Below are positions 9,370 through 52,093 of a stretch of DNA of 64,000 nt, piece after piece (position 1 is the first letter of the stretch; each line of letters starts with the position of its first letter). The position numbers were made by a program, and so were the translations under genes. Source of the stretch: Microgenomates group bacterium (GTDB lineage: Bacteria > Patescibacteriota > Microgenomatia > UBA12405); assembly GCA_049303675.1 (NCBI GenBank), contig JBAQNJ010000001.1, positions 821,443 to 885,442 of the forward strand, written 5' to 3'. The notes under the pieces are model-generated. The model saw only the letters and a list, made by a program, of their open reading frames with translations. It did no database searches and was not told where the DNA came from.

Positions 9370-9582
9370 ATGAACGAAAAATCACTCACTCCCATCGGTA
9401 TCATCTTATTATCTATCCTCTTCTTGCTGTTATCTTACGCCGGATATATTTCCTACCAGAGTATCGATTGGACAGTGCTCACCCGACTCGAGTCTCAGCC
9501 ACTAGTCCTACCAACTCCAGTTTCTTCACCCTCGGCAGTTGCTTTATCTCCCACTCCCTCCTTAACGCCAACGACAAAGTAG
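9370..9582 (+). CDS. small membrane protein with Pro/Thr/Ser-rich tail
   Basis: ORF with one TM helix; overlaps the convergent GIY-YIG gene at its 3' end. Confidence 0.3.
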   Translation: MNEKSLTPIGIILLSILFLLLSYAGYISYQSIDWTVLTRLESQPLVLPTPVSSPSAVALSPTPSLTPTTK

Positions 9583-9739
9583 CTACTTTTTCCACATAAA
9601 TCAATTCAAAAGATTTAAAGGCTCTCACATACTTGGACCCTTTGCCTGATTGATGTTTTAATATCCTCTTTTCCACGTCACTAGTTTGGCCGGTATATAG
9701 GGTATTTTTATCTGTTCTTAGAATATATACAAAATACAT
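9479..9739 (-). CDS. GIY-YIG nuclease family protein (UPF0213/YhbQ-like)
   Basis: 'FYVYILRTDKNTLYTGQTSDVEKRILKHQSGKGSKY' GIY-YIG motif. Confidence 0.75.
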   Translation of the reverse strand: MYFVYILRTDKNTLYTGQTSDVEKRILKHQSGKGSKYVRAFKSFELIYVEKVATLSLALRREWEIKQLPRVKKLELVGLVAETRVG

Positions 9740-9740: not shown

Positions 9741-11264
9741 TTAATAATTTGGCAAACTCGGCACTGGCAAGCTCCCCCAATGTGCCATTAAGTAAGGAAA
9801 AGCTACTTCATTGTATATAAATATCCGATAAATTAGATATCCAAAAAACAACCACCAGATATATCTTACTAGCCCTACTTTCGGCCACCTCAGTCTCATC
9901 CCCAAAATCACTATAAACACAAAAAATATATTTCGATAATGGCCAATGCTCGGTACCAAATTTAGAGCCTCTCTTCCCCAGTAATAAGAGCTCGAAAAAG
10001 GAACTAGGAAAAAAGCGATCCCTTTTGCCCAGTTCGGTTTTTGCATAATTTCCCAGATAAATATTCCACTACACGCAGCCAAAAAGGGGATTGACGACAT
10101 CAAATACCATGGATAGTTTGGACTAGGAACCAACAATATTGTCAATAAATGAGCTGCCAGTGGCAAGGTAATAAACAGCACTTTCTTTACCCTTATTCTT
10201 AAAGAAATAATAAAAAAAGAAATCCATCCCCATATCCACCATCCATCAACCGGAAAATTCTTCAGTTTGAGAGCTTCCAATTGGGTCACCATTTTAATAG
10301 CTCCAAAATAACCTCGATGACTGTTGGTAGCAAAAATAGCCACAAACAAATCTTTTTGCAGCCACAAACCCCAACTGATATAAATCAGAATAGGTACGGC
10401 CACCGCCGTCAAAAATATAAAGATGTTTTTGTAAGGGAGTTTATACACTCCCATCAATATTACCAATCCACCCAAAAAACCGATTGCCGGCTCTTTGGTC
10501 AACACTGCCATTCCCCCAATTATTCCCGCCACTATTAGTGTGGCAGTTTCGTAAGCCATACTTTTTCTCTTTTCATATCCCTCAATCGACAAATACACAA
10601 AAATCAAACTCATCAATATCAGTGGCGATACCGCGTTTTCCAAATAAGCCGTTCTCGTGGCCAAGATATAGGTAGGCACGGTTGAGTAGACAATCAGTGC
10701 TATTAAGGGAACCCAAGGATTCCCGTATAACATTAATAATAGTATATACAATAAGCCACCAGTAATAACTGCCATAACTATGGCTGATTTTCTAAAATCA
10801 GCCGGTCTCACTGCCTCCACTGTCTCAACATTATCAGGCATGCCCCATTCATATATCATTCCCCCAATTGGCGGATGATCAAAAAATGGAGCCACCATCA
10901 ATATTTGCTCCTTACCTTTTAAGTAATCGAGCTCTACTACCCCTGTCAATGGTTTTCTGTCTTGTAAAAATTTATTTAAGTCAACATTATCTATCGAGAA
11001 TCCTCCCACTTCCCCTCGAATTGATCCAAACAATTTATTGCCATATTCCCCCGAGTTTAGCGACCAAGCCATTGGCAGACCAGTCTTTTTGAGACTTATT
11101 GCCTGCCAAATATAGTTGTATTCATCAAGGTTGGGCAGAGGATATGTCTCATAATTAAAATATCTCAAAACCAAGCTATGTTTGGATACTAAAATAGCCA
11201 AAAAAATACTCAAAACAAAAAAAATATACCCCCGATATTTCAACCACATACCCAATATTATCAA
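9741..11264 (-). CDS. GT-C fold membrane glycosyltransferase (ArnT/PMT-like, GT39/83)
   Basis: ~12 predicted TM helices; first periplasmic loop carries 'LDEYNY' (DE motif). Confidence 0.5.
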   Translation of the reverse strand: MIILGMWLKYRGYIFFVLSIFLAILVSKHSLVLRYFNYETYPLPNLDEYNYIWQAISLKKTGLPMAWSLNSGEYGNKLFGSIRGEVGGFSIDNVDLNKFLQDRKPLTGVVELDYLKGKEQILMVAPFFDHPPIGGMIYEWGMPDNVETVEAVRPADFRKSAIVMAVITGGLLYILLLMLYGNPWVPLIALIVYSTVPTYILATRTAYLENAVSPLILMSLIFVYLSIEGYEKRKSMAYETATLIVAGIIGGMAVLTKEPAIGFLGGLVILMGVYKLPYKNIFIFLTAVAVPILIYISWGLWLQKDLFVAIFATNSHRGYFGAIKMVTQLEALKLKNFPVDGWWIWGWISFFIISLRIRVKKVLFITLPLAAHLLTILLVPSPNYPWYLMSSIPFLAACSGIFIWEIMQKPNWAKGIAFFLVPFSSSYYWGREALNLVPSIGHYRNIFFVFIVILGMRLRWPKVGLVRYIWWLFFGYLIYRIFIYNEVAFPYLMAHWGSLPVPSLPNY

Positions 11265-11332
11265 ACTTGTTAGCTCAGTGGAACGATTTTCGAACTAAAA
11301 CCAATTTATCGGTGTGTAATTAAAAAGGAAAA

Positions 11333-11674
11333 TTATTCTTCCGGTTCCTGCATTAGCGTTTTTATTTTACCTATGATCGCTTCTCGTGGAATTCCGGTCG
11401 CAAACAACATTGCACCAATCTGAGGATAAGCAGACCATCTTTGATATATTCTCGCTTCCACTGAAGATTCATCTGGCGTAGTACCGGCAACACCATCTAA
11501 GAATCTTACGACAGGACCATCAAAGTCTGGCTTAGAAGCAGTAGCTACCCAAGATTTTAGATCATTATCTAACCATTCTAATTCTTGTCTGTTTAATGCA
11601 GCACCAATATCTCCTTGGCGGACTAATTTAGTAACTTCCTTGTATCTCTCCCATGGTGGAATAAAATCTGTCAT
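11333..11674 (-). CDS. hypothetical protein (113 aa)
   Basis: ORF with local GC seemingly above surroundings; no motif recognised. Confidence 0.35.
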   Translation of the reverse strand: MTDFIPPWERYKEVTKLVRQGDIGAALNRQELEWLDNDLKSWVATASKPDFDGPVVRFLDGVAGTTPDESSVEARIYQRWSAYPQIGAMLFATGIPREAIIGKIKTLMQEPEE

Positions 11675-11785
11675 ATTATCAGTAATTATATCTTATAATG
11701 TTATAAAGTCAACAACAAACTAAGAAATAAATTTTAAAACCAAATATAACCTGTCCTAAGGACTTATTTTAAAATTTTTCTTAAG

Positions 11786-11856
11786 TTACCCTGCATGGAT
11801 TCGAACCACAATAAACAGCTCCAAAGGCTGTTGTCCTACCATTAGACGACAGGGTA
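11786..11856 (-). tRNA. tRNA-Gln (anticodon TTG)
   Basis: rc: TACCCTGTCGTCTAATGGTAGGACAACAGC-CTTTGGA-GCTGT...GGTTCGAATCCATGCAGGGTAA; U1:A72 as in many tRNA-Gln. Confidence 0.7.
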
Positions 11857-11860
11857 AAGG

Positions 11861-11942
11861 TGCCGACGAGAGGACTTGAACCTCCACACCTTGCGGCATA
11901 CGCACCTCAAGCGTACGTGTATACCAATTTCACCACGTCGGC
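11861..11942 (-). tRNA. tRNA-Leu (anticodon GAG)
   Basis: rc: GCCGACGTGGTGAAATTGGTATACACGTACGC-TTGAGGT-GCGTA + long variable arm + GGAGGTTCAAGTCCTCTCGTCGGCA. Confidence 0.8.
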
Positions 11943-11964
11943 AGATTGTTAAAAGAGCTCTATA

Positions 11965-12186
11965 TTATACATCCTTTCTCTCTCTACTTATCACCACCAA
12001 GTCACCTTCGCTAAGTTGGCCAGAGATGACACCTTTACCTCTCTCCATTTGAGCAAGGTCTGTTTTTTCAAATCTTTTTACAAGTGGTAACGGATCGCCG
12101 ACATTTGTATAACCTAGACTATATAAATAATCTCTCAAGGAAAATTTTCCGATACAATTATAGATAATTTTTGAATTTTCTATCAT
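11965..12186 (-). CDS. small hypothetical protein (~73 aa); paralog of 12341..12568
   Basis: ORF 11965..12279 truncated to the internal Met because its N-terminus is a translation of tRNA-Val; C-terminus '...GDLVVISRERKDV' is shared with the neighbouring paralog. Confidence 0.4.
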   Translation of the reverse strand: MIENSKIIYNCIGKFSLRDYLYSLGYTNVGDPLPLVKRFEKTDLAQMERGKGVISGQLSEGDLVVISRERKDV

Positions 12187-12188
12187 AG

Positions 12189-12261
12189 TGGCCGCTGAGG
12201 GACTCGAACCCCCGACCACCCCGATGTAAACGGGATGCTCTACCAACTGAGCTAAGCAGCC
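12189..12261 (-). tRNA. tRNA-Val (anticodon TAC)
   Basis: rc: GGCTGCTTAGCTCAGTTGGTAGAGCATCCCG-TTTACAT-CGGGG...GGGGGTTCGAGTCCCTCAGCGGCCA. Confidence 0.8.
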
Positions 12262-12340
12262 AAAGTGTGAAGTTGCCAACTGTGGGGTTTATCCCCAGTC
12301 CGAATGCTTTCGGACAGCTAAGCAGCCATGCTGCTGTATT

Positions 12341-12568
12341 TTACCAATCTTTATGTTCTCTGACTATTACCACCTGTCCTGCCTCAACGTGTTCAGGATA
12401 ATCAATTTTCTCTCTTCTCAAACCTGTAGCCCGCAATACATATGCCTCACCACTTTTAACATCCATAACTCCTACTCTCACAGAAAAATCCCCCAAACAC
12501 ACATCCAAAATTGCATCACACAAGCTTGATACCTTCATCTCTACGGCATTTGTTACACCCTTAATCAT
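12341..12568 (-). CDS. small hypothetical protein (75 aa); paralog of 11965..12186
   Basis: ORF; C-terminus '...AGQVVIVREHKDW' and ~60% nucleotide identity over the last ~40 nt with the neighbouring paralog. Confidence 0.4.
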   Translation of the reverse strand: MIKGVTNAVEMKVSSLCDAILDVCLGDFSVRVGVMDVKSGEAYVLRATGLRREKIDYPEHVEAGQVVIVREHKDW

Positions 12569-12571
12569 CTG

Positions 12572-12595
12572 AGCGAGAGACGGGACTCGAACCCG
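12572..12595 (-). pseudogene. tRNA-Gly 3' fragment (T-arm plus 3' acceptor), exact duplicate of the 3' end of tRNA-Gly(GCC) at 12866..12939
   Basis: rc 'CGGGTTCGAGTCCCGTCTCTCGCTC' identical to the 3' 25 nt of the intact gene; upstream sequence does not fold into D or anticodon arms. Confidence 0.55.
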
Positions 12596-12610
12596 TTGGC
12601 AGCCTGTCGC

Positions 12611-12862
12611 CTAAGGCGACTGCTCAACCAATTTAACTTTTAACCACTCACGACCCTTACCAGACTTTAAAGACTTTTCTCTTCTTAAGGCATCTATTCT
12701 CGTTGGCATATTTTCACCATAAATTAAATCAAATGGAAAAGTTAGTGAAGTATATTTGGATTTACCAGAATTATGTTCCGACATTCTTCTTTCAATATCG
12801 TTTGTCTGGCCTACATATAGTCGATTGTTTACCCGACTTTTAAGTACGTATACAGTAAACAT
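12611..12862 (-). CDS. GIY-YIG nuclease family protein (UPF0213/YhbQ-like)
   Basis: 'FTVYVLKSRVNNRLYVGQTNDIERRMSEHNSGKSKY' motif; paralog of 9479..9739. Confidence 0.75.
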   Translation of the reverse strand: MFTVYVLKSRVNNRLYVGQTNDIERRMSEHNSGKSKYTSLTFPFDLIYGENMPTRIDALRREKSLKSGKGREWLKVKLVEQSP

Positions 12863-12865
12863 TCT

Positions 12866-12939
12866 GAGCGAGAGACGGGACTCGAACCCGCAGCCTTCTC
12901 CTTGGCAAGGAGATGCTCAACCAATTGAGCTACTCTCGC
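12866..12939 (-). tRNA. tRNA-Gly (anticodon GCC)
   Basis: rc: GCGAGAGTAGCTCAATTGGTTGAGCATCTCC-TTGCCAA-GGAGA AGGCTGCGGGTTCGAGTCCCGTCTCTCGCT. Confidence 0.85.
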
Positions 12940-12943
12940 AATT

Positions 12944-12974
12944 CAGTTAACAGATTTCAGTTAACCGTTTACAG
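12944..12974. repeat. GTTAAC-core repeat, left flank of four-helix-bundle gene: CAGTTAACAG-ATTT-CAGTTAACCGTTTACAG
   Basis: read directly. Confidence 0.65.
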
Positions 12975-13344
12975 TTTTTAGCGACCTTATCAAACCGTAG
13001 AGTATTTTACCAGTTAAATCAGCCTGTGTTAATACCGGATTTACATCAAGTTTCGGATACAATTTATTAATAATTTTACATATTGCGACCACCTCAACCA
13101 GTGACTTTCTCGATATGCCCAAAAACTTAATGAAATCTCTTCTGCTGTCAGAAGCACTACCTTCAGCAATATTAATTGCCACCGATGTTGACGCTCTCCT
13201 GATCTGATCACCTAGACCATGCACTTCAAAACTAGGCAACAAAGTATGTAAAAGATATGAAAACTCTACTAACCTTACGGACTCTTCCCACACTTTTAAC
13301 TTTTCAAAATTCTGCATTTTCCTCTGTATACTGTTAACTGCCAT
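12961..13344 (-). CDS. four-helix-bundle protein (TIGR02436 / '23S rRNA intervening-sequence protein' family)
   Basis: 'LKVWEESVRL...LP..E.HGLGDQIRRASTSVAINIAEGS...FLGISRKSLVEV' family signature. Confidence 0.75.
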   Translation of the reverse strand: MAVNSIQRKMQNFEKLKVWEESVRLVEFSYLLHTLLPSFEVHGLGDQIRRASTSVAINIAEGSASDSRRDFIKFLGISRKSLVEVVAICKIINKLYPKLDVNPVLTQADLTGKILYGLIRSLKTVNG

Positions 13345-13359
13345 CCGTTAACTGTTTAG
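13331..13359. repeat. GTTAAC-core repeat, right flank of four-helix-bundle gene: CTGTTAACTG-CCATC-CGTTAACTGTTTAG (direct orientation relative to the left flank)
   Basis: read directly. Confidence 0.65.
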
Positions 13360-13432
13360 TGCCGAAAGTTGGACTCGAACCAACATCCCAGGTTTTTCAG
13401 ACCAGTGCCGTGACCATCTTGGCTATTTCGGC
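13360..13432 (-). tRNA. tRNA-Phe (anticodon GAA), copy 1
   Basis: rc: GCCGAAATAGCCAAGATGGTCACGGCACTGGT-CTGAAAA-ACCTG GGAT GTTGGTTCGAGTCCAACTTTCGGCA; anticodon stem has one U.U mismatch; 73/73 identical to the copy at 39464..39536. Confidence 0.65.
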
Positions 13433-13513
13433 TTAAGAAGTATTTGTATTATACAAAATAAAAATATTTTTGTTCTACTGTATTCTATCAACAGTTAACT
13501 GTTCGCTGTCGAG

Positions 13514-13595
13514 TGCCGTTGAGAGGACTTGAACCTCCACGCCTTGCGGCATACGCTTCTGAGACGTACGTGTATACCAATTTCACCACAACGGC
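13514..13595 (-). tRNA. tRNA-Leu (anticodon CAG)
   Basis: rc: GCCGTTGTGGTGAAATTGGTATACACGTACGT-CTCAGAA-GCGTA + long variable arm + GGAGGTTCAAGTCCTCTCAACGGCA. Confidence 0.8.
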
Positions 13596-13643
13596 AAATC
13601 AAGGTATTATCTCACGAAACAAATTCAGTTTTTATCTTTACAA

Positions 13644-14186
13644 CTATTTAATAACATCCTCAAACAGTTCTTTAGCGCTAAACACTAATGGCAATTTTAA
13701 AACCTCTTCACGAGTAAACCATTTTGCCTCAATTACTTTACTCTCAACATCATCTCTAGTTTCAGTTGTTTCAGATATAGTTTCAAAAAAGAAAATCACT
13801 CCATGATAATTATATTTTGGTGCAATTGCCTCTCTGAAGACTAAGAAACTTAGTTCCTTAGCCACAATTCCAGTTTCTTCCAATATCTCTCTTTTAGCCG
13901 CAATCTCCAGAGTTTCTCCAAATTCAACCTTACCTCCTGGTATTATCCAATAATCCTTGCCTCCTTCTAATGTTTCCCTAACTAACAAGAACTTGTTTTT
14001 ATTTCTTACCAACACGCCAACTATTACTTTTGGTTTCCTTTTTATCATTTCTAACTGAATCTTAGGCGGAATCGGCCGACAACTACACTCTCGGTTGTGA
14101 TCCGTATGCCACTGAATTCTCTCGTTCAAACTTGCCTTTTTAGGCATCTTGTTCTTCTGGTGCCACTCTTTATTTATCTTCGCCAT
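13644..14186 (-). CDS. NUDIX hydrolase with N-terminal Cys/His-containing extension
   Basis: Nudix box 'GGKVEFGETLEIAAKREILEETG'. Confidence 0.8.
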   Translation of the reverse strand: MAKINKEWHQKNKMPKKASLNERIQWHTDHNRECSCRPIPPKIQLEMIKRKPKVIVGVLVRNKNKFLLVRETLEGGKDYWIIPGGKVEFGETLEIAAKREILEETGIVAKELSFLVFREAIAPKYNYHGVIFFFETISETTETRDDVESKVIEAKWFTREEVLKLPLVFSAKELFEDVIK

Positions 14187-14218
14187 TATTTATTTTATAC
14201 CACTCTCTTTATCTCATC

Positions 14219-14292
14219 TGGAGCGGGATGGGGGAGTCGAACCCCCCATATCAGTTTGGAAAACTGAAGTTATACCGATTAACTAATCCCGC
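14219..14292 (-). tRNA. tRNA-Gly (anticodon TCC), CCA encoded
   Basis: rc: GCGGGATTAGTTAATCGGTATAACTTCAGT-TTTCCAA-ACTGA...GGGGGGTTCGACTCCCCCATCCCGCTCCA. Confidence 0.8.
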
Positions 14293-14382
14293 AACGTACA
14301 AATTACTTCATAATTTTACGTTGCAGAAACGTTAATTTGCAAAGCAAATTTTACGTTTCGCAAAATAAATTAAGGTGCAATC

Positions 14383-14442
14383 TAAGTCGGGCTATGCCTA
14401 GACTAAGTTCATAAGACATAGTCGGGCTACGCCTCGACAAAG
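14383..14442. repeat. two tandem ~24-bp direct repeats (TAAGTCGGGCTA[T/C]GCCT[A/C]GAC[T/A]AAG) between tRNA-Gly and tRNA-Pro
   Basis: read directly: 14383..14407 and 14419..14442. Confidence 0.6.
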
Positions 14443-14458
14443 CTCGTAGAGAGCGAAG

Positions 14459-14532
14459 TCGGGGATACTGGATTCGAACCAGCAACCTCACGGTCCCAAA
14501 CCGTGCGCGCTAGCCAATTGCGCCAATCCCCG
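14459..14532 (-). tRNA. tRNA-Pro (anticodon TGG)
   Basis: rc: CGGGGATTGGCGCAATTGGCTAGCGCGCACGG-TTTGGGA-CCGTG...GCTGGTTCGAATCCAGTATCCCCGA. Confidence 0.8.
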
Positions 14533-14557
14533 TTGCTCGTGTATTTTACACGAATTG

Positions 14558-14642
14558 TGCCGCCAGAGGGGATCGAACCCCCACGCTTGTTGAGAGCACA
14601 AGATTTTAAGTCTTGCGTGTATACCAATTTCACCATGGCGGC
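14558..14642 (-). tRNA. tRNA-Leu (anticodon TAA)
   Basis: rc: GCCGCCATGGTGAAATTGGTATACACGCAAGA-CTTAAAA-TCTTG + long variable arm + GGGGGTTCGATCCCCTCTGGCGGCA. Confidence 0.8.
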
Positions 14643-14691
14643 TAATTGTAGAATGTATTATATAATCAAAAGAACAATTTCCCAACAACCA

Positions 14692-15807
14692 ATGAGCAAA
14701 CCCCAATTCTTTAAAACCACCACCGGACTTCATATACCACTGCCAGTATTTTTCCCCGACGCTACCCGAGCCGTTCTCAAAACCCTCGACAGTGCCGATA
14801 TTGAGTCCACCAAAACTCAAGGAATACTAGTCAATACTTTTCATCTCAACAATTTCCCCGGAGGATCGGTTATAAAAGAACACAAAGGTGTCCGCAACTT
14901 TATGTCATGGAGTGGGGGAGTTATCTCCGATTCCGGTGGCTTCCAAGTTATGTCACTTGCCAAAACCCACGATGGCACCAAAAACCCAGTTTCTGACAAA
15001 GGAGTCAACTTTAAAATCCCCGGAACCAGCAAGAAAATTCTTTTTACCCCCAAAATGAGTATCGATTTTCAAATGCTTCTCAAAACTGATATGGTAGTAG
15101 TGCTTGACGATTTTACCGATCTTCAGGCCAACGAGGCCAAGCAACGAGAAACTGTCGAACGAACCGTTACTTGGGCGCGAGTTTGTAAAAAAATATTTGA
15201 CAAAAATTGCTCTGATCGCAAAATATCACCTGAATCTCGACCCTACTTACTCGGGGTTGTTCAGGGTGGTCACAACTTAGAATTACGTCGAGAATGTACC
15301 CAAAGATTGGTCGAAATTGGCTTTGATGGACTGGGCTATGGCGGTTGGCCCATGACCGACGATGGCGAATTTAATTTTGAAATACCCCGAGTTATTGGCG
15401 AAAATGTCCCCGATGATTATTTGCTCTATGGTCTAGGAGTAGGCAAACCACATGAAATAGTCCACATGGTCAAAATGGGCTGGAATGTCTTTGACTGTGT
15501 CCTACCCACTCGTGATGCCCGCCACAAACGACTCTATGTTTATGATGCCAAAACAATTGATGACATCGACTTGTCTACCGATAAATTTTATAAATATTTT
15601 GTCCCCGACAAGGAAATTCATTATCATGACCGCAATCCTGTCAGTACCGCCTGTGATTGTCTACTTTGCACTCGTTACGATCGTTCTTATCTTCGCCACC
15701 TATTTCAAATCGGCGATATGACAGCGGGCCGCCTCGCCACTATTCACAATCTACGTTTTTATTCTATTCTCATGGAGAAGCTACAACCAATTTATGAAAA
15801 AATTTAA
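14692..15807 (+). CDS. tgt: queuine tRNA-ribosyltransferase (tRNA-guanine transglycosylase)
   Basis: start trimmed to 'MSKPQFF' (ORF 14503.. overlaps three tRNAs); 'LYGLGVGKPHEIVHMVKMGWNVFDCVLPTRDARHKRLYV' and zinc site 'CDCLLCTRYDRSYLRHLF' (CxCxxC...H). Confidence 0.85.
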   Translation: MSKPQFFKTTTGLHIPLPVFFPDATRAVLKTLDSADIESTKTQGILVNTFHLNNFPGGSVIKEHKGVRNFMSWSGGVISDSGGFQVMSLAKTHDGTKNPVSDKGVNFKIPGTSKKILFTPKMSIDFQMLLKTDMVVVLDDFTDLQANEAKQRETVERTVTWARVCKKIFDKNCSDRKISPESRPYLLGVVQGGHNLELRRECTQRLVEIGFDGLGYGGWPMTDDGEFNFEIPRVIGENVPDDYLLYGLGVGKPHEIVHMVKMGWNVFDCVLPTRDARHKRLYVYDAKTIDDIDLSTDKFYKYFVPDKEIHYHDRNPVSTACDCLLCTRYDRSYLRHLFQIGDMTAGRLATIHNLRFYSILMEKLQPIYEKI

Positions 15808-16825
15808 TGCCATAAATTTTGGCTGTCGCGTCAATGCCGCCGAAACCAATCAATTATCCCAACAACTAATTGATCAAGGTTATACTTTTGACGATCAAAA
15901 TCCCGACACTATTATTGTCAACACCTGCGCCATAACCAAGAAAGGTGAATACGAATCAATTTATAATATAAAAAAAATATTAAAAGACAACCCAAACATT
16001 AAAATAATTGCCACTGGTTGTGCTAACCTAGAAAAATTAAAAGACCTCAAAAACGTTACCATCCTCAAAAATGTCGACAAGGACAAAATCCAATCCGTCT
16101 ACACTCCCCAAATCAGCGACAAATTTTCTCGCACCCATCGTTATATGCTCAAAGTACAATCCGGCTGTAGTGTCAATTGTACTTTTTGTATCGTCCCCAC
16201 CCGTCGCACCACCCTCAACTCTCTGTCTATCTCAGATGCTGTGAAAACAGTTAATACCGTCGTAGAAAACGGCTATACCGAAGTTATTATCACTGGTGTC
16301 AATCTGGCTCAATATCTCCCCAGCCTCGCCGATTTGGTAGAAGCACTGCTCACCCAAACCAAAATAAAATTAATTTCATTTGGTTCAGTCCCACTGCTTT
16401 GTATCAACGATAAATTCATTGATCTGTTAACTGTAAACCGTTCACGGTTAACTGACTTTCTCCACATTCCTCTTCAATCAGGATCAAATAAAATCTTAAA
16501 ATTAATGCACCGCCCATATCATAAAGAAAAAATACTCAATACCTTTAAATTACTAACTTCCCCCCTTGTTAAAGGGGGGACCGAGGGGGGATTGAAATTC
16601 GGGACCGACATCATCGTCGGCTTCCCCACCGAAACTGACTCCGACTTTCAAGAAACTTATAATTTATGCCAATCTTTAGGTTTTTCTAAAATTCATGTTT
16701 TCCGCTATTCTCCCCGCCCCGACACACCTGCTCGAGAATTGTTCCTCAAAAGTGCTAAAATCCCTAAAACCGTCATTTTAGAAAGGTCAAAACTACTCCG
16801 TCAACTAACACCAACAAATATATGA
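15794..16825 (+). CDS. radical-SAM methylthiotransferase (MiaB/RimO family), N-terminal MTTase domain plus radical SAM core
   Basis: 'IIVNTCAITKKGE' MTTase N-domain; 'CSVNCTFC' CxxxCxxC; no TRAM domain within this ORF; contains an in-frame GTTAAC-repeat copy and a GC hairpin. Confidence 0.75.
   Translation: MKKFNAINFGCRVNAAETNQLSQQLIDQGYTFDDQNPDTIIVNTCAITKKGEYESIYNIKKILKDNPNIKIIATGCANLEKLKDLKNVTILKNVDKDKIQSVYTPQISDKFSRTHRYMLKVQSGCSVNCTFCIVPTRRTTLNSLSISDAVKTVNTVVENGYTEVIITGVNLAQYLPSLADLVEALLTQTKIKLISFGSVPLLCINDKFIDLLTVNRSRLTDFLHIPLQSGSNKILKLMHRPYHKEKILNTFKLLTSPLVKGGTEGGLKFGTDIIVGFPTETDSDFQETYNLCQSLGFSKIHVFRYSPRPDTPARELFLKSAKIPKTVILERSKLLRQLTPTNI
16434..16467. repeat. GTTAAC-core repeat copy inside the methylthiotransferase coding sequence (CTGTTAACTGTAAACCGTTCACGGTTAACTGAC), in frame
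   Basis: read directly; encodes '…LLTVNRSRLTDF…'. Confidence 0.6.
16561..16579. repeat. GC hairpin with TGTTAA loop (CCCCCT-TGTTAA-AGGGGGG) inside the methylthiotransferase coding sequence
   Basis: read directly; encodes 'PLVKGG'. Confidence 0.55.
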
Positions 16826-17106
16826 AAGTCCATATCGCTTCACTCCACTATGCCAGCCTCGAGAACACCCATCCCATTCCCGCCGTCACTATCAAAAAAA
16901 TAGATATTCCCACAGCCAGAACATTTAGATTCGGCCAAGGCCAAATTTTACATATCGGAAGAGATCCGTTTACTATCAGCGCTCAGGTCATTGTTGACGA
17001 CGAACTAGTCAGGCGTGAAGCCTCCGGTACACCCCTAGATATTTACCAAATGACCTTCCACACCAGAGACCCAAAAAAAGTTAAAGTCGTCTCCATCTTC
17101 CCCTAA
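16822..17106 (+). CDS. possible detached TRAM-like C-terminal segment of the upstream methylthiotransferase (ATGA overlap; split or frameshifted gene?)
   Basis: 94-aa ORF starts with ATG overlapping the upstream stop; weak TRAM-like pattern '...IGRDPFTISAQVIV...'; speculative. Confidence 0.3.
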   Translation: MKVHIASLHYASLENTHPIPAVTIKKIDIPTARTFRFGQGQILHIGRDPFTISAQVIVDDELVRREASGTPLDIYQMTFHTRDPKKVKVVSIFP

Positions 17107-18192
17107 TCATCTTCCAAACCACACTTCCATCTCATCAAACACCTCATATTTAAAAGACACTTCTTGACCCGCAAATCGGGCACCCTGACCCCAGACAAAA
17201 GCCCGCGCCACATCCTCACTCATCTGTGTCGATAATTTATTGAGTACATCTTTTAACGTCTGACCTCGGTGCATTATCAACGGTTCTTTTCTATCTGGTT
17301 CACTCGTTCGTTCCCTCTTTAAATAAACCCTAACCAATCCTAATTTTCTCCACACTGCTTCCTTAAATTCATCAATTCCCATATTTTTATCAGCACTCAT
17401 GTAAAGTCTATTTTCCACCTTTTCCTTCCTCAAATTTGGCTTGGTATCAATTTTGGTCACAATCTCCAACAGAGGAATATAGGTTCTTGATTTACTCAAC
17501 CCATCTATAAATCGGTCAATTGTCTCTACCTTTTCACCCAATTGAATTAGGGCACTTTCAAATCCCATCTCTGAGGCTATTTGCTCTAATTGTTCCATCG
17601 GTAAAATACTAAACGGATCCAATATCCGTAGGCCACCTTTACTGACTCGATTTATAATTATTTTTGGTGGCTGTTGATTTGGCCGCACCCCTGCCTGTTC
17701 CATTTCTTTTTTTATTTTATCTATCCATGCAATTCTATCAATATCAGCCATTAGTATCACCATATCTGATGCTCGGACCACCGACAACACCTTGCGACCA
17801 AAACCTTTGCCTGTCGCCGCCCCCTCAATAATCCCAGGTAAATCCAACATTTGGATGTTTATACCTTTGTATTCCATCATCCCTGGGATTACCCCCAGAG
17901 TAGTAAAGTCATAATTTCCCACCTTTGATTCAGCATTGGTCACTGCATTGAGTAGCGTCGATTTACCCACTGATGGCAGTCCCACCAACACCACCGAAGC
18001 GTCACCCGAATGTTTGATGGCATAGCCCACACCCCCGCCACCTCCAGTTAATTTGGCATCCAACATGTCCTTAAGCCGTGATAGTTTTGCCTTCAATACC
18101 CCATGATGAAATTGGCTACTCTTGTCATAAGGAGTATCCCGCAGCTCTTTCTCCACTGCCTCAATTTTTTTATTAATTTCTTCTGGAATCAT
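17107..18192 (-). CDS. DRG-family (developmentally regulated GTP-binding protein-like) Obg-class GTPase with C-terminal TGS domain
   Basis: strong resemblance to DRG across 'HHGVLKAKLSRLKD...GGGGGVGYAIKHSGDASVVLVGLPSVGKSTLLNAVTN...YDFTTLGVIPGMMEYKGINIQMLDLPGIIEGAATGKG'; TGS-like C-terminus. Confidence 0.8.
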   Translation of the reverse strand: MIPEEINKKIEAVEKELRDTPYDKSSQFHHGVLKAKLSRLKDMLDAKLTGGGGGVGYAIKHSGDASVVLVGLPSVGKSTLLNAVTNAESKVGNYDFTTLGVIPGMMEYKGINIQMLDLPGIIEGAATGKGFGRKVLSVVRASDMVILMADIDRIAWIDKIKKEMEQAGVRPNQQPPKIIINRVSKGGLRILDPFSILPMEQLEQIASEMGFESALIQLGEKVETIDRFIDGLSKSRTYIPLLEIVTKIDTKPNLRKEKVENRLYMSADKNMGIDEFKEAVWRKLGLVRVYLKRERTSEPDRKEPLIMHRGQTLKDVLNKLSTQMSEDVARAFVWGQGARFAGQEVSFKYEVFDEMEVWFGR

Positions 18193-18209
18193 CTGATAAA
18201 ATAGAGAAC

Positions 18210-19553
18210 ATGTTGGTTCTAATACTAATAATTACTTTTTTCCTAAACTACAGTCCTATTTTAGCATCTGAACGCAATATTTTTGGTCTCCACTTAACTC
18301 AAACCAACGATATCTATTCTGCGGCCAAAATAATTAATTCGAGTAACGGCGACTGGGGCTATGCCACCATTGTTATCCGACTCGACCAGCTCAATCGCCA
18401 AAATTGGCAGGAGTTTATGAATAATTGCCGTAAATTCCATATTATACCTATAATCAGATTGGCCACTATCATGGAAAATAATTATTGGAAAAAGCCAGAA
18501 ACTTCCGATATCGATAATTTGGCCTCTTTTCTCAATTCACTCAATTGGCCCACCCAAGAGCAACATATAATATTATTTAACGAAACCAATCACGGTTCCG
18601 AATGGAGTGGGGGAGTCGATGTTAAGTCATTTACCGACATTTCTATCTATACCTATCAAAAATTAAAAAGTCTAAATTCAAATTTTGTGGTAATTAGTGG
18701 TGCTCTAGACCTTGCCGCACCAAATAAAAACAGTGAATTTAAATCAGCTACGGACTTCTTTAAAGAAATTTACACTTATCGTCCCGAATATTTTGACAAT
18801 CTCGATGCTCTGGGCAACCACTATTATCCGCAAAACAGTCCCCGTGATTATAACTGGGAATTAGGACTTCTAAAAAAGCTTGGGGTAAAAAAAACTTTTC
18901 CAGTTTACATTACCGAAACCGGCTGGCCTCATCGCGAGGGCGAGACCAAAAATAACCAATACTTTCTCGCCCAAACATCGGCCAATCTGTTAATCAAATC
19001 TCTAGCTACATGGCAAAAAGACCCCCGAGTTGTGGCGGTTACCCCATTTATTTTCAACTATCCCTTCGAACCATTTGACCACTTTTCTTGGGTTGATAAA
19101 AATGAAAATCTATTGCCAGCTTATCAATCAGTCGTTAATAATCCCAAACAAAAAAATACTCCTTCTCAAATTACCTCTTATGAAATCACTAGCAATCGCT
19201 TGCCATTTATCATTTTAACCGACTCAGAATACTTGGGCGAAATATCAATAAAAAATACTGGCCAATCAATTTGGGGAGAGACTAATTTTTGCTTGCCCCC
19301 TGACTCCACCCCCAATGTCACCATTGATCAAATTTGTACTACCAATAATTTTGTTTATCCCAACCAAATTGAAAAATTCTCTTATAAATTAAAAATAAAA
19401 AATATACCCGATTACAAGGAAAAAACATTTATCAGTTGGCAGGGATTACCTCCTCTAGAAATCACTCCCTTGAATGGAGAAGGCACTATCTATAGTCCTA
19501 AGTTGACACCGCTGCAAAGGTTAGTTCAATATTTCCAAAGCTGGTTTATTTAA
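18210..19553 (+). CDS. secreted glycoside-hydrolase-like TIM-barrel protein (GH5-like?)
   Basis: signal/TM N-terminus; 'ILFNETNHG' (acid/base-like NE[PT]) and 'VYITETGWPH' (nucleophile-like) motifs; family assignment uncertain. Confidence 0.45.
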   Translation: MLVLILIITFFLNYSPILASERNIFGLHLTQTNDIYSAAKIINSSNGDWGYATIVIRLDQLNRQNWQEFMNNCRKFHIIPIIRLATIMENNYWKKPETSDIDNLASFLNSLNWPTQEQHIILFNETNHGSEWSGGVDVKSFTDISIYTYQKLKSLNSNFVVISGALDLAAPNKNSEFKSATDFFKEIYTYRPEYFDNLDALGNHYYPQNSPRDYNWELGLLKKLGVKKTFPVYITETGWPHREGETKNNQYFLAQTSANLLIKSLATWQKDPRVVAVTPFIFNYPFEPFDHFSWVDKNENLLPAYQSVVNNPKQKNTPSQITSYEITSNRLPFIILTDSEYLGEISIKNTGQSIWGETNFCLPPDSTPNVTIDQICTTNNFVYPNQIEKFSYKLKIKNIPDYKEKTFISWQGLPPLEITPLNGEGTIYSPKLTPLQRLVQYFQSWFI

Positions 19554-19593
19554 ACCAAATTATACTTATTACTGATAAAATACAGTTGATTTG

Positions 19594-19666
19594 TCCTCGT
19601 AGCTCAGTTGGATAGAGCGCTTCCCTTCTAAGGAAGAGGTCATTGGTTCGATCCCAATCGAGGATA
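19594..19666 (+). tRNA. tRNA-Arg (anticodon TCT)
   Basis: GTCCTCGTAGCTCAGTTGGATAGAGCGCTTCC-CTTCTAA-GGAAG AGGTC ATTGGTTCGATCCCAATCGAGGATA. Confidence 0.8.
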
Positions 19667-19667
19667 C

Positions 19668-19739
19668 TAAACAGTTGACAGATTACAGTTTACAGAAAAA
19701 ATCTCTGTTAACTGACAACTGTAGACTGTAAACTGATTA
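19668..19739. repeat. cluster of CAGTT[A/G]AC / ACAGTTTACAG / CTGTAAACTG words between the two tRNA-Arg genes (GTTAAC-core repeat family)
   Basis: read directly: 'aaacagttgacagattacagtttacagaaaaaatctctgttaactgacaactgtagactgtaaactg'. Confidence 0.6.
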
Positions 19740-19811
19740 GCGCCTATAGCTCAATGGATAGAGTACCAGTCTTCGGAACTGGTGATGAGGGTCCGATTCC
19801 CCCTGGGCGTA
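19740..19811 (+). tRNA. tRNA-Arg (anticodon TCG)
   Basis: GCGCCTATAGCTCAATGGATAGAGTACCAGT-CTTCGGA-ACTGG...; acceptor stem has two G.U pairs. Confidence 0.7.
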
Positions 19812-19833
19812 CATATTAATTACAAATTAAAAA

Positions 19834-19850
19834 TTACGAATTACGAATTG
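19834..19850. repeat. ATTACGAATTACGAATT motif (reverse complement of the AATTCGTAATTCG repeat seen at 47.03 and 52.07 kb)
   Basis: read directly. Confidence 0.6.
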
Positions 19851-19899
19851 TTAGGTGTTTTTTGTTGATTTGTAAATTATAATCAGTAATTAACAATTT

Positions 19900-19972
19900 G
19901 GGTCGTTAGCTCAGTCGGTAGAGCAATCGCCTCTTAAGCGATTGGTCGTGAGTTCGAGTCTCACACGACCCA
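19900..19972 (+). tRNA. tRNA-Lys (anticodon CTT)
   Basis: GGGTCGTTAGCTCAGTCGGTAGAGCAATCGC-CTCTTAA-GCGAT...GTGAGTTCGAGTCTCACACGACCCA; TATAAT ~18 nt upstream. Confidence 0.85.
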
Positions 19973-19987
19973 CTAGGTAATTTCATT

Positions 19988-20069
19988 GCCGCAGTGGTGA
20001 AATTGGTATACACGTACGCTTTAGGAGCGTATACCGCAAGGTGTGGAGGTTCAAGTCCTCTCTGCGGCA
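19988..20069 (+). tRNA. tRNA-Leu (anticodon TAG)
   Basis: GCCGCAGTGGTGAAATTGGTATACACGTACGC-TTTAGGA-GCGTA + long variable arm + GGAGGTTCAAGTCCTCTCTGCGGCA; followed by T-run. Confidence 0.8.
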
Positions 20070-20090
20070 CTTTTTTTGCTACACTATTTT

Positions 20091-20867
20091 ATGTTCTTGC
20101 TGTTATTAGCCATATTTATCACTTTCTCGGCAAATACTTTTGCCCAAGAGGCGACACCCACACCTCGACTATTTGACCAATATCAAAAGGACTATCTCTT
20201 CCAATATGACCAATATCAAAAGGACTATCTTGTCTATGTAGACAAAAAACGCGTCTATACCAAATACGGTAGCATTACCACTCAAAAAGACAAATTCAAC
20301 GCCGCCGTTACTGCCATCAATAGTCGTAATCGCACCTACAAAGCTTATTTACTTGCTCTGCGCGTCATGCTTGATGAATACAAAAGTGCCGACAACACTC
20401 AAACCGAAAGAAATCAAATTGACCTCTCCAAATGGGAAGATTGGTTCAACGAACAACTAACCGTAGTACCTTCAATTAATAACGATAGCGACCTCACCAA
20501 GTGGATAAATGATTTCAAAGATAAATATATCAGCATCCAACAAGTAATTTACTCTGCTCTTGTCCAGCACGAAATTAATCTCCGTCAGTTGACCCTAAAT
20601 CAAATCCAATCTCTGGCCAACGATATCAAAAACAATCCCCAAATAAAGCCAGAGAGCCAGCAATGGATCAGTAGTTTGACCGTAAAATCGGATCTAGTTA
20701 GCACAAGTTTTACTAATGCCCAAAATTTTACTAAGAAAAGCCAGAGCCAATCCCGTTTTTCCAATTTTTATCCAGACGCCTTGTCTGAACTTAGTAAAAG
20801 CAATAATTATCTCCGGGAAATATCAGCCGACCTAAAATTAACTGTTACCAAGTTTTATCTACCATGA
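20091..20867 (+). CDS. secreted hypothetical protein with tandem 'DQYQKDYL' repeat
   Basis: start trimmed to 'MFLLLLAIFITFSANTFAQEA' (signal peptide) to clear tRNA-Leu; 27-bp tandem DNA repeat at ~20171..20236. Confidence 0.45.
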   Translation: MFLLLLAIFITFSANTFAQEATPTPRLFDQYQKDYLFQYDQYQKDYLVYVDKKRVYTKYGSITTQKDKFNAAVTAINSRNRTYKAYLLALRVMLDEYKSADNTQTERNQIDLSKWEDWFNEQLTVVPSINNDSDLTKWINDFKDKYISIQQVIYSALVQHEINLRQLTLNQIQSLANDIKNNPQIKPESQQWISSLTVKSDLVSTSFTNAQNFTKKSQSQSRFSNFYPDALSELSKSNNYLREISADLKLTVTKFYLP

Positions 20868-21235
20868 ACGACGCCTACCAAAACCAAGATATTAGTGGGA
20901 CCAATCCCTTGGAAAACACACCAGTAGAGACCACCTCCAAAAAACCGCTCAAAATTCCCAGTGACCCCAAAATTAGAATAATAATAATTTTAGGAGCCAT
21001 TGTTTTTGTTTTGTTACTTATTAGCCTAGTCACCACTTTTTTTAGGAAAATATCTCCCACGCCCATCAGAAATACTCCCACGCCAATAATTACTACTATA
21101 CCCCTGCCTACAGAAAACACGGAGGTCAACAACATCCCCCCAGAGCTGCAAGATAAATTTACTCAAATCGACAATCATATCAACACTAACATAAACTTCA
21201 TTCCACCCCAAATCGACACTGAAATAGGGCTTTAA
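20864..21235 (+). CDS. single-pass membrane protein, Pro/Thr-rich
   Basis: ORF with ATGA overlap; one TM helix. Confidence 0.4.
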   Translation: MNDAYQNQDISGTNPLENTPVETTSKKPLKIPSDPKIRIIIILGAIVFVLLLISLVTTFFRKISPTPIRNTPTPIITTIPLPTENTEVNNIPPELQDKFTQIDNHINTNINFIPPQIDTEIGL

Positions 21236-39463: not shown

Positions 39464-39536
39464 GCCGAAATAGCCAAGATGGTCACGGCACTGGTCTGAA
39501 AAACCTGGGATGTTGGTTCGAGTCCAACTTTCGGCA
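39464..39536 (+). tRNA. tRNA-Phe (anticodon GAA), copy 2 (73/73 identical to 13360..13432)
   Basis: GCCGAAATAGCCAAGATGGTCACGGCACTGGTCTGAAAAACCTGGGATGTTGGTTCGAGTCCAACTTTCGGCA. Confidence 0.65.
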
Positions 39537-39685
39537 CTAGATGTCTGTTCTTTGCGGTACACTCCTTTTTCTTATTTCTATCATCGTTGTCTCTATTTTT
39601 TTTTGATATTCTACCAGTTTATAACTCCCGTCTTTAATCCACGGTAGAAGATTATCTTTTTTTGTTTCATTTTTTGTAGTCATAC

Positions 39686-45106: not shown

Positions 45107-47023
45107 ATGACTGATATTAATAGTCTTGTTGGAATTGGCCCCAAAACTGCTACTGCCTTTCGCCAGATCGGCATCGATCTGGTTGAAAATTTGCTTGACT
45201 ATTATCCTTATCGCTATCTCGATTTTTCCCACACCTTAAAAATTGCCGATTATGATCAAATTTCTCCAGCTACTTATAGTGGTATTGTTCTCAATTTCCA
45301 AAACGTATATACCCGCAGTCACAAAAATATTCAAAAAGCCACTATCAAGGATAGTACCGGCACTCTTGATTTAATTTGGTTTAACTCTCCCTATCTTGCC
45401 AAAATTATTAAAGTTGACGAAATAGTCAATGTCGCTGGTATTGTTAGTCTATACAAACACAGGCCAACTATTATTGCCCCAATGTTGGGTCAAAAAACTG
45501 GCAGAATTATCCCTCTTTACCATCAAGCCCCTGGACTAAGGTCATCCCAGATTGAAAAAATTTTTCACCAGAATCACTCTCAAATTTTCAAAAACATCAC
45601 TGACCCCCTACCTTTATCAATTATTACAAAATATCGGCTGGGTAACTTACTGGATACTTTGACCGAAATTCATTTTCCAACTAGTCAAAAAAACATTTCC
45701 ACTGCTCAGTTGCGTCTTTCTCTGGACCAAGCCCTCCAACTATTGGCTACCTCCAATATTCAAAAAAATATTCTTAATCAAAAAAGAGTTGCCAAAAAAA
45801 TGTCCAAAGTTACACCAATTAATTTTCTACCCTACGAACTGAGCCAATCACAAAAATTATCATGGCAAGAAATCCAAAACGATCTCCTGTTATCCGTTCC
45901 TTGTCATCGGTTGATTTCTGGCGATGTCGGTAGTGGTAAAACCATTATTGCCCTATTGGCCGCCCATATGGCCAGTATCAACCACCAGATCTCCTTGATT
46001 ATTGCTCCCACCCAAGTATTGGCCAAACAGCATTTTGAATTTTTCTCCAATATTCTCCCCCATACTCCCATTATATTTCTCGATAAAAAAACAAAAAAAA
46101 TACCTAGAAACGCCATTATTATCTCCACTCACACCGCCTTTTATAAAGATACAAAGTTCATCAAACAAATCTCGTTGTTAATTATCGACGAGCAACACAA
46201 ATTTGGGGTTAACCAGAGAAACTTTTTGAGTTCCCTTCCCCACCCACCCCACACCATTTCCCTGACAGCTACCCCCATTCCCCGTACTCTAGCCCTATCG
46301 ATTTACGGCCACCTCGATATTTCTTATTTGGACCATTTAGACCGCTGGCACCCAGTCAAAACATTTGTGGTCCCTCCTCCAAAACAAAATAGTTGTTACC
46401 AGTGGCTTGACCAACATATTCAAAAAACCCATCAACAAGCATTTATTGTCTGTCCCTTTATCGAAGACTCCGACACCCTTACCACCGTTAAATCAGTCAC
46501 CAGCGAGTTTGGAAACTTAAAATTATTATTGCCCCACCTTAAACTAGGGCTTATTCATTCCCAGATTAAGTTAGCCCAGCGCCAAAAAATATTTAATGAC
46601 TTTGCCTCAAATAAAATTAATATATTGGTTACTACCCCTATAATCGAAGTGGGCATCGATTATCCCAATGCCGGTGTAATTATAATTCAATCAGCCGATC
46701 GTTTTGGATTGGCCTCACTTCACCAATTGCGAGGACGAGTTGGTAGAGGAGTCGAATTAGGCTATTGTTATTTATTTTCACCAAGGGACAATAGTCGATT
46801 AACTTATCTCGCCAGCCATTACGAGGGCCGACAATTGGCCGAGTTTGATCTCCAGACCCGCGGTCAAGGTAAATTATTTTCTACCATTCAGCACGGACAT
46901 TTCCCCCTCAATACCCAATCGATCGAATTGGCCACCAAAATAATCAAGGATTTAATCAAAGAAAAGTTTGATTTAAATAAATTAACCTCCAACGGTGAAA
47001 AAATAACCAGTTTAAGTAATTAG
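45107..47023 (+). CDS. recG: ATP-dependent DNA helicase RecG
   Basis: N-terminal 'LVGIGPKTATAFRQIGIDLVENLLDYYPYRYLDF', Walker A 'GDVGSGKT', 'DEQHKFGV', helicase C-domain. Confidence 0.85.
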   Translation: MTDINSLVGIGPKTATAFRQIGIDLVENLLDYYPYRYLDFSHTLKIADYDQISPATYSGIVLNFQNVYTRSHKNIQKATIKDSTGTLDLIWFNSPYLAKIIKVDEIVNVAGIVSLYKHRPTIIAPMLGQKTGRIIPLYHQAPGLRSSQIEKIFHQNHSQIFKNITDPLPLSIITKYRLGNLLDTLTEIHFPTSQKNISTAQLRLSLDQALQLLATSNIQKNILNQKRVAKKMSKVTPINFLPYELSQSQKLSWQEIQNDLLLSVPCHRLISGDVGSGKTIIALLAAHMASINHQISLIIAPTQVLAKQHFEFFSNILPHTPIIFLDKKTKKIPRNAIIISTHTAFYKDTKFIKQISLLIIDEQHKFGVNQRNFLSSLPHPPHTISLTATPIPRTLALSIYGHLDISYLDHLDRWHPVKTFVVPPPKQNSCYQWLDQHIQKTHQQAFIVCPFIEDSDTLTTVKSVTSEFGNLKLLLPHLKLGLIHSQIKLAQRQKIFNDFASNKINILVTTPIIEVGIDYPNAGVIIIQSADRFGLASLHQLRGRVGRGVELGYCYLFSPRDNSRLTYLASHYEGRQLAEFDLQTRGQGKLFSTIQHGHFPLNTQSIELATKIIKDLIKEKFDLNKLTSNGEKITSLSN

Positions 47024-47050
47024 TAATTAGTAATTCGTAATTCGTAATTA
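47017..47050. repeat. 7-bp tandem TAATT[A/C]G x4.5 (contains AATTCGTAATTCGTAATT) immediately upstream of the rpmF promoter
   Basis: read directly. Confidence 0.6.
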
Positions 47051-47068
47051 GTTTGTTATAATAGCTCC

Positions 47069-47230: not shown

Positions 47231-47599
47231 GTGAAAAGCCATCAAGACCCCAGACATCTCCGTCGAATAAAAAACATGCAGTCACTATTTGCCTACAACA
47301 TGGGTAACAGTGAGCCATCAACCCCAGACTCGACTGACATAATTAGTCATCTGTCAGAAATTGATTCCCAAATTAGTACTTACGCCCCCAAATGGCCCAT
47401 CGACAAAATAAATCAAGTCGACTTAGCTATCCTCCGTTGTGCAATCTGGGAATTAACATTTTCCCAAAAAACTCCGCCAAAAGTTGTTGTCGATGAATCG
47501 ATTGAGTTGGCCAAAGAATTTGGCACCGACACCAGTTCATCATTTATTAACGGCTGTCTCGGCGGTATTCTCAAAACTAATGACTCCATCACTAACTAA
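47231..47599 (+). CDS. nusB: transcription antitermination factor NusB
   Basis: 'RHLRRIKNMQSLFAY', 'DLAILRCAIWEL', 'VVVDESIELAKEFG' NusB pattern. Confidence 0.8.
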   Translation: MKSHQDPRHLRRIKNMQSLFAYNMGNSEPSTPDSTDIISHLSEIDSQISTYAPKWPIDKINQVDLAILRCAIWELTFSQKTPPKVVVDESIELAKEFGTDTSSSFINGCLGGILKTNDSITN

Positions 47600-48275: not shown

Positions 48276-48321
48276 TTACATTAAAGAATTAAATCATTAA
48301 AAATTGATTAAAAATTAAAAA

Positions 48322-52088: not shown

Positions 52089-52093
52089 AATTA
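52067..52093. repeat. TAATTCGTAATTCGTAATTCATAATTA repeat (third copy of the AATTCGTAATTCG family)
   Basis: read directly; overlaps the start codon region of the minus-strand gene 51255..52088. Confidence 0.6.

Follow-up and report, generated by a model that had tools for sequence, protein, structure and literature searches.

What kind of element is a small gene that lies between two tRNA genes and is bracketed by short repeats, and do the repeats represent the ends of a mobile DNA cassette or the arms of an RNA stem? We analyzed such a locus in a 64,000 nt stretch of DNA from a Microgenomates group bacterium (the window, to whose first letter all coordinates refer), and we compared it with related loci in other genomes.

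The ORF list and profile searches identified a 384 bp ORF at 12961–13344 on the minus strand that encodes a four-helix-bundle protein. The product scored 82.6 bits against PF05635 (cut-off 33.8) and 86.7 bits against TIGR02436 (cut-off 24), covering positions 1–109 of the 109 in the latter profile, and its nearest solved relative is PDB entry 2GSC (XCC0516), a pentameric four-helix bundle (E 3e-14). A first-pass annotation of the window had assigned the 384 bp gene to the four-helix-bundle (rRNA-IVS) family, and these scores bear it out. When translated from the ATG at 13317, the protein is 118 aa long, and QIRRASTSVAINIAE supplies R50, S54, N58, and E61 of the conserved motif (G)xxRxxxSxxxNxxE, with Q replacing G. 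The length (members of the family have approximately 110–130 aa), the motif, and the solved relative all place the protein in TIGR02436/PF05635, the S23p/Avd family. The same annotation had stated that proteins of this family are normally found inside intervening sequences (IVSs) of 23S rRNA; this was an overstatement, given a family of at least 7,891 members (E ≤ 1e-8) and a sample of 28 loci in which only 1 is in rRNA.

The NCBI annotation gives a protein of 127 aa that starts at the ATG at 13344, a start codon located within the repeats. We consider the ATG at 13317 most likely to be the true start, because it is preceded by an AGAGGA ribosome-binding site, because the match to the family profile starts at about residue 10, and because homologs begin with MQNFEKLK or MQKFEKLK. 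On the gene strand, AGGAAAATG comes directly after the repeat array, which leads into the AGAGGA ribosome-binding site and the ATG at 13317. If translation starts there, the gene occupies 12961–13317 (minus strand), and the right-hand repeat would therefore be the 5′ UTR. We compared the ORF with that of a homologous locus (L003) and found that 79% of synonymous sites and 16% of nonsynonymous sites differ (pS 0.789, pN 0.157), indicating that the protein is under purifying selection. Scans of the locus found no convincing promoter belonging to the ORF itself and no U-tract terminator.

ARAGORN and Rfam both placed tRNA-Phe(GAA) upstream of the gene (13360–13432) and tRNA-Gly(GCC) downstream of it (12867–12939), in agreement with the first description of the gene as lying between tRNAs. 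The ORF and its two neighbors are all on the minus strand, in a cluster of nine codirectional tRNAs between 11785 and 14642, and a perfect TATAAT hexamer is present on the same strand at 13452–13447, 14 nt upstream of tRNA-Phe. Rfam detected no rRNA match in the interval 11000–21000, and the element thus does not lie within the helix of an rRNA gene, as a classical IVS does.

Other small insertions and duplications are present in and around this cluster. The tRNA-Phe(GAA) gene exists as two 100% identical copies on opposite strands, 26 kb apart (13359–13432 and 39464–39537), and the CTAAACAGTT array follows only the copy that adjoins the four-helix-bundle gene, not the copy at 39464–39537. A GIY-YIG ORF (12611–12862, minus strand) lies between tRNA-Gly(GCC) and a 5′-truncated tRNA-like remnant (12568–12640). 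It is bracketed by a perfect 28 nt direct repeat of a tRNA 3′ end (12568–12595 is identical to 12863–12890) and, judged by this arrangement, appears to be another selfish insertion in the tRNA cluster; at 9479–9739 (minus strand) there is a paralog with 48% identity. Two further small ORFs occupy tRNA spacers at 12341–12568 and 11965–12186 (minus strand). Their products, of 75 and 73 aa, are weakly similar (31% identity, E 0.001) and share a C-terminal VVIxRExKD motif, and neither has a Pfam match.

The repeats on either side of the four-helix-bundle gene had been described as direct repeats of approximately 30 bp in the same orientation. We found instead that they are inverted. The arms at 12944–12974 and 13324–13354 are 31 nt long and are complementary in inverted orientation at 26 of 31 positions (84%), versus an identity of only 62% when they are read as direct repeats, which rules out the direct-repeat reading. 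When the two 70 nt flanks were shuffled 300 times, the best score obtained was 20 of 31, compared with 26 of 31 for the real sequence. The arms appear to be direct because their GTTAAC core is itself palindromic. The repeated words on which the earlier description was based are nonetheless real: CAGTTAAC occurs 10 times in the window (1.84 expected), a count reached in none of 100 shuffles, with copies in both gene flanks, at 13492–13501, at 19707, and at 16426/16447. GTTAAC by itself is not enriched (12 occurrences, 16.5 expected).

In each arm, CAGTTAA-type heptamers form a short array with a period of 7/14 nt. Read along the gene strand, the sequence of the upstream arm is CTAAA CAGTTAA CGGATGG CAGTTAA CAGTATA CAG, and that of the downstream arm is CTGTAAA CGGTTAA CTGAAAT CTGTTAA CTG. 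TRF detected a period of 14 (2 × 7) in the left arm (12942–12976). The arrays are degenerate, and their lag-7 autocorrelation (0.62–0.67) is below our strict criterion for an array. The 5′ arm, which extends over 13324–13359 on the minus strand, starts at the base immediately after the tRNA-Phe discriminator. An alignment with three other tRNA trailers (A3) shows the same arrangement in all four, with an arm that starts at the base after the discriminator and a common word, CTAA-ACAGTTRAC, and the 5′ arm can still be aligned between the window and L003. The 3′ arm (12944–12974, minus strand), which was delimited by the inverted repeat, by a second alignment (A4), and by the TRF period, covers the last four codons and the stop codon of the ORF and ends 4 nt from tRNA-Gly.

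Folding of the RNA from tRNA-Phe to tRNA-Gly gave an energy of −112.8 kcal/mol (z −3.3), and in both the MFE and the centroid structure precisely these arms pair and close off the ORF. The predicted closing stem is approximately 31 bp long and imperfect, with five mismatches, and it encloses the ORF together with its ribosome-binding site. The locus thus has the terminal inverted repeats of an IVS (31 nt arms, 84% complementarity), and they are predicted to form an enclosing stem. Rfam recognized only the tRNAs and assigned the hairpins to no known RNA family. We conclude that the architecture is at least as good a match to an RNA-level IVS stem as to the ends of a DNA transposon, and may be a better one.

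A copy of the same element that carries no ORF is present elsewhere in the window. A hairpin at 19667–19740 (plus strand) takes up the entire 72 nt spacer between tRNA-Arg(TCT) and tRNA-Arg(TCG). Its 29 nt arms are complementary at 79% of positions and are separated by a 16 nt loop, its fold has an energy of −22.6 kcal/mol (z −4.3), and TRF detected a period of 7. The 5′ sides of the hairpin and of the gene element have in common A|CTAA-ACAGTTRACRGAT..CAGTT.ACAG directly 3′ of the tRNA (A3), and the alignment of the two 3′ arms (A4) contains 31 invariant columns. Because both of its arms align with the arms around the gene, we regard the hairpin as an ORF-less copy of the gene's element. In addition, a solo array of three units, CAGCGAA CAGTTAA CTGTTGA, directly follows tRNA-Leu(CAG) at 13488–13508 (minus strand) and is included in alignment A3. 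It contains a 12 bp palindrome and has no significant fold of its own (z −0.3); it could be a relic or a landing site. The first-pass annotation had pointed to related words at 13488–13500 (the 12 bp palindrome) and 19668–19739, and arrays are indeed present at both places.

The remaining copies of CAGTTAAC are in an array-like stretch, CTGTTAA CTGTAAA CCGTTCA CGGTTAA CTG, at 16420–16455. This lies within the coding sequence of an MtaB-like radical-SAM protein, contains two perfect copies of the word 21 nt apart, and encodes LLTVNRSRLT. We ruled out an in-frame insertion of an array into this gene, since the protein has no more than one additional residue when aligned with the structures of RimO and MiaB; gene conversion or chance are possible origins. 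The word is confined to four sites in the window, adjoining 5 of its 16 tRNAs, and the arrays occupy 3′ trailer or 5′ leader sequence, away from promoter positions. It had been proposed that the repeats belong to a gene cassette and that they would have to be reinterpreted as regulatory elements if they proved ubiquitous at tRNA promoters; within the window, 11 of the 16 tRNAs have no such array alongside, which favors the original proposal.

Heptamer arrays of other kinds are also found in the window. Tandem arrays of a second family, AATTACG/GTAATTM, are present at 19816–19850 (after tRNA-Arg(TCG)), at 47015–47052 (upstream of an L32-like ORF), and at 52063–52100 (between two ORFs), and an (ATTAAAA)n array follows the 3′ end of an RNase III gene at 48280–48339. 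None of these adjoins a four-helix-bundle gene.

We then compared the locus with homologs in other genomes. Close homologs are rare (the closest, P0002, has 86% identity), and those with 43%–71% identity are found in differing neighborhoods, of which L003, L062, and L079 abut tRNAs. L003 (71% identity) lies after the 3′ end of tRNA-Leu and before an SNase gene, with clear (CAGTYAA)n arrays on both sides (39–72 and 420–465 of that locus) in direct orientation; its unit, CAACAGT, matches the cyanobacterial STRR3 word. L062 (55%) is flanked by tRNA-Leu(CAG) on one side and by the 5′ end of a second tRNA on the other. Its inverted arrays consist of a quite different word, GCTATTA (GCTWTYA), and the predicted fold still closes off the ORF. 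L079 (43%), between tRNA-Arg(CCG) and tRNA-Lys(CTT), has CAGTTGA-type arrays and a closing stem, and L063 (53%) has inverted CAGTTCA/TGAACNG arrays with protein-coding genes on either side. The clear 7 nt arrays of L003, L063, and L079 belong to the same word family as those in the window. Among the closest relatives examined, four adjoin the 3′ end of a tRNA, L003, L062, and L079 among them. By our estimate, tRNAs account for approximately 5% of genes, and the frequency with which the element abuts a tRNA is far above that rate.

The retention of the stem in L062 and L079 despite the change of words amounts to covariation of the element as a whole. The stem is not universal: in three homologous loci (L003, L069, and L076), the arrays run in direct orientation and no stem closes off the gene. 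It is as if the gene had been inserted into one array and had split it in two.

To place these observations in the context of the family, we surveyed 28 distinct loci: the window, the close homologs, 5 loci from reference genomes, 9 from metagenomes, 8 from plasmids (of Calothrix, Nostoc, Pseudanabaena, Stanieria, Geminocystis, Picosynechococcus, and Gemmatirosa), and 4 further homologs. By an automated criterion, one or both flanks carry a lag-7 array in 21 of the 28 loci, and in 20 of 28 the best inverted 21-mer match across the gene exceeds that in every shuffle. For 23 of 32 flanks, no other lag scored as well as lag 7; the mean autocorrelation was 0.66, compared with 0.44 in other DNA of the same loci, and strong lag-7 arrays are approximately 11-fold enriched in the gene flanks (28% versus 2.5% in other DNA of the same loci). 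The units are 8 nt long in a few loci. The words vary by locus (GCTGAAA, GGATGAA, GTAGGGA, GGGTGTA, AAGGGAA, GGGCTGA, and others), and pairing across the gene is retained. The sole rRNA locus of the sample, L057, is a genuine, metagenomic 23S rRNA IVS (Rfam LSU, 689 bits), and it also has inverted heptamer arms.

Several of the array-flanked genes interrupt operons: cas10-cmr3 (L073), cas6-cas4 (L069), nrdB-nrdA (L068), and ftsW-murG (L004, L008, and L055). The presence of four-helix-bundle genes in cas loci has been noted before and interpreted as a functional association (PMC3936711). Our results suggest that this association may reflect selfish insertion and not function, and they argue for caution in taking four-helix-bundle genes within cas operons to be functional Cas partners. 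The arrays do not imply the gene, because (CAGTYAA)n arrays are found at 44 viral-contig loci, none of which adjoins a four-helix-bundle gene; a scan of viral contigs for the protein gave no matches. In a full-text search of incomplete coverage, Coxiella was the only case in which heptamer arrays were connected with this gene family, and the family-wide link may perhaps not have been described before.

We think it probable, on the strength of the arms, the predicted fold, and the comparison with rRNA IVSs, that the locus is an IVS-type element lodged in the spacer of a tRNA operon and a candidate for excision from the precursor RNA by RNase III. In these terms, the element is an ORF-bearing IVS outside rRNA. 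The tRNA-Phe, the ORF, and the tRNA-Gly would be cotranscribed as one precursor, in which the inverted arrays are predicted to pair in a duplex of approximately 31 bp that encloses the ORF and its ribosome-binding site. By analogy with rRNA IVSs, host RNase III would cut the duplex, and cleavage would part the two tRNA precursors and free a small mRNA. The insertion, once cut out, would be of little cost to the host, and the ORF would ride on strong stable-RNA transcription. A gene for RNase III, with the signature NERLEFLGDAVLE, was identified in the window at 47484–48275 (plus strand) by a six-frame motif search and the ORF list, and we propose its product as the trans-acting nuclease for the stem. 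More speculatively, spread or maintenance at the DNA level probably occurs by recombination between arrays, and the ORF-less hairpins would then be empty sites. Several observations count against the stem model: the stem contains five mismatches, L003, L069, and L076 have no closing stem, the arrays in the window are degenerate, and heptamer arrays occur without a four-helix-bundle gene, both in the window and at the 44 viral-contig loci. RNase III sites are not predictable from sequence.

Alternatively, the element could be a mobile cassette at the DNA level, in which the arrays are the terminal inverted repeats of a nonautonomous element and the RNA stem is incidental. Its movement would depend on an enzyme supplied in trans or on recombination into arrays that were already in place. 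This reading is compatible with the IVS-type one; we judge it possible, if doubtful. The close homologs differ in context, lying between tRNA-Leu and an SNase gene, between two tRNAs, or between protein-coding genes. In other phyla, conserved operons (ftsW-murG, cas10-cmr3, cas6-cas4, and nrdB-nrdA) are broken up by the gene. An ORF-less copy lies 6 kb away, and the cases with direct orientation resemble an insertion that split a single array in two. It is these changes of context that suggest mobility. Against this reading, there is no target-site duplication at the outer junctions of the gene element (CTAAA and AATT) or of the ORF-less copy (CTAAA and ATTA), no transposase or integrase adjoins the element, and the four-helix-bundle gene is its only ORF. 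The 64 kb window contains one ORF-bearing copy, one ORF-less copy, and one solo array, and not the multiple copies of a MITE or an IS. Moreover, the arm words change between loci while complementarity is retained, which argues for selection on pairing. The first-pass annotation had taken the locus for a minimal mobile cassette; the ORF-less copy and the differing neighborhoods of the homologs speak for that view, and the absence of a target-site duplication and of a transposase, together with the inverted orientation of the repeats, speaks against it.

It is also conceivable that the flanking arrays are generic intergenic microsatellites, produced by replication slippage and without function at this position; repeat-rich spacers may just be where the gene persists most readily. 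An excess of heptamer simple-sequence repeats is known from many bacteria (PMC4692102, PMC4679880), the AATTACG family and the (ATTAAAA)n array occur in the window with no four-helix-bundle gene alongside, and the same is true of the arrays at 44 viral-contig loci. We regard this reading as unlikely in view of the approximately 11-fold enrichment of strong lag-7 arrays in the gene flanks (28% versus 2.5%), the inverted match between the two flanks, significant in 20 of the 28 loci, and the conservation of the 5′ arm between the window and L003 despite saturated synonymous sites. A role for the arrays as putative binding sites of the four-helix-bundle protein, which would act in autoregulation or as an RNA/DNA chaperone with a protomer or pentamer bound per 7–14 nt, would account for the co-occurrence of gene and arrays across phyla and for the extension of the arrays to the start codon. 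The relative bAvd is described as binding nucleic acid and reverse transcriptase, which fits such a role. Homology to bAvd is on record (PMC10053308). We consider the binding-site reading quite unlikely, as the core motif RxxxSxxxNxxE of the protein is conserved, whereas the array words vary greatly from one locus to the next. Finally, TTAACA and TTGACA within the repeated word resemble a −35 hexamer, and four of the five array sites abut tRNAs, as would be the case if the words were promoter, terminator, or processing signals of the tRNAs and unrelated to the gene. This is very improbable: 11 of the 16 tRNAs in the window are without an array, the arrays are found after tRNA 3′ ends or as hairpins and not at promoter distance, there is no U-tract terminator, and the same architecture surrounds members of the gene family far from tRNAs, with unrelated words. 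Together with the lack of anything convincing in the promoter and terminator scans, the tRNAs without arrays led us to rule out the promoter/terminator reading.

The IVS-type reading of this locus has a wider counterpart, which we advance tentatively: TIGR02436 genes with paired 7 nt repeat arrays may form one class of selfish, IVS-like cassettes that spans phyla. Such a class would colonize stable-RNA operons (rRNA and tRNA) as well as gaps in cas, ftsW-murG, and nrd operons, the classical 23S IVSs would be a special case of it, and heptamer microsatellites such as STRR, TAACTGA, and GGGAATC, whether single or in convergent pairs, would be its landing pads or footprints. The origin and mobility of rRNA IVSs and the role of the S23p/Avd-like ORF are questions that date from the early 1990s, and the over-representation of heptamers in bacteria is a second puzzle. 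The presence of ORF-bearing and ORF-less copies of one stem in tRNA spacers, with the link to arrays across phyla, joins the two, and the link between the four-helix-bundle family and paired heptamer arrays deserves a systematic survey.

Several known systems resemble the locus in part. The accessory protein Avd of diversity-generating retroelements (DGRs) has a homologous four-helix-bundle fold and belongs to the same family (PF05635; PF22296 for bAvd), whereas the neighbors of the gene in the window are tRNAs. No reverse transcriptase family was among the recorded Pfam hits of the genes within approximately 10 kb on each side, several of which have no recorded hit. In REP/RAYT systems and MITEs, as at this locus, inverted copies of a short repeat surround a gene, and the repeat is also present elsewhere without the gene; they differ in that the element described here has no transposase fold and no target-site duplication, and its protein is a helical bundle of approximately 118 aa.

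Among repeat arrays, TAACTGA heptamers have been described in Beggiatoaceae, cyanobacteria, and Bacteroidetes (PMC4679880), and heptamer arrays are known from Xanthomonas (GGGAATC) and Nostoc, with 70 convergent (inverted) pairs in X. campestris (PMC4692102). Searches of the text of these two papers revealed no link between the arrays and IVSs, S23, or four-helix bundles. The STRR, TAACTGA, and GGGAATC arrays consist of tandem 7 nt units in intergenic DNA, a pattern that the arms described here resemble, and TAACTGA is nearly the TTAACTG of the window; in contrast, the arrays in the window are short, degenerate, and paired across an ORF.

Insertions in the rRNA genes of CPR bacteria carry 23S_rRNA_IVP or GIY-YIG ORFs (bioRxiv 10.1101/2024.02.27.582315). 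The Microgenomates group belongs to the CPR, and both ORF families are also present in the tRNA cluster of the window. As far as its accessible text goes, that survey is limited to 16S and 23S genes and makes no mention of copies in tRNA spacers or of flanking arrays.

The ORF-bearing IVSs of 23S rRNA, as in Leptospira and in Coxiella with its S23p, offer a further comparison. The Coxiella burnetii IVS has a 28 bp terminal stem, with two to three GACAGAT heptamers and a GACAGAA just upstream of the start codon (ATG) of S23p. In vitro, this IVS is a substrate of recombinant RNase III, with a 5′ end that maps to the first repeat (PMC4990558). The repeat word in the window is a different one, and cleavage, shown in vitro for Coxiella, is here predicted by analogy. 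The element in the window also lies in a spacer between two tRNAs and not in an rRNA helix, so that no functional RNA is fragmented. What the two have in common is the protein family, a stable-RNA transcription unit as host, and tandem heptamers that run up to the start codon, as is also seen in L003 (...CAGTAAG ACAGAAG AATG).
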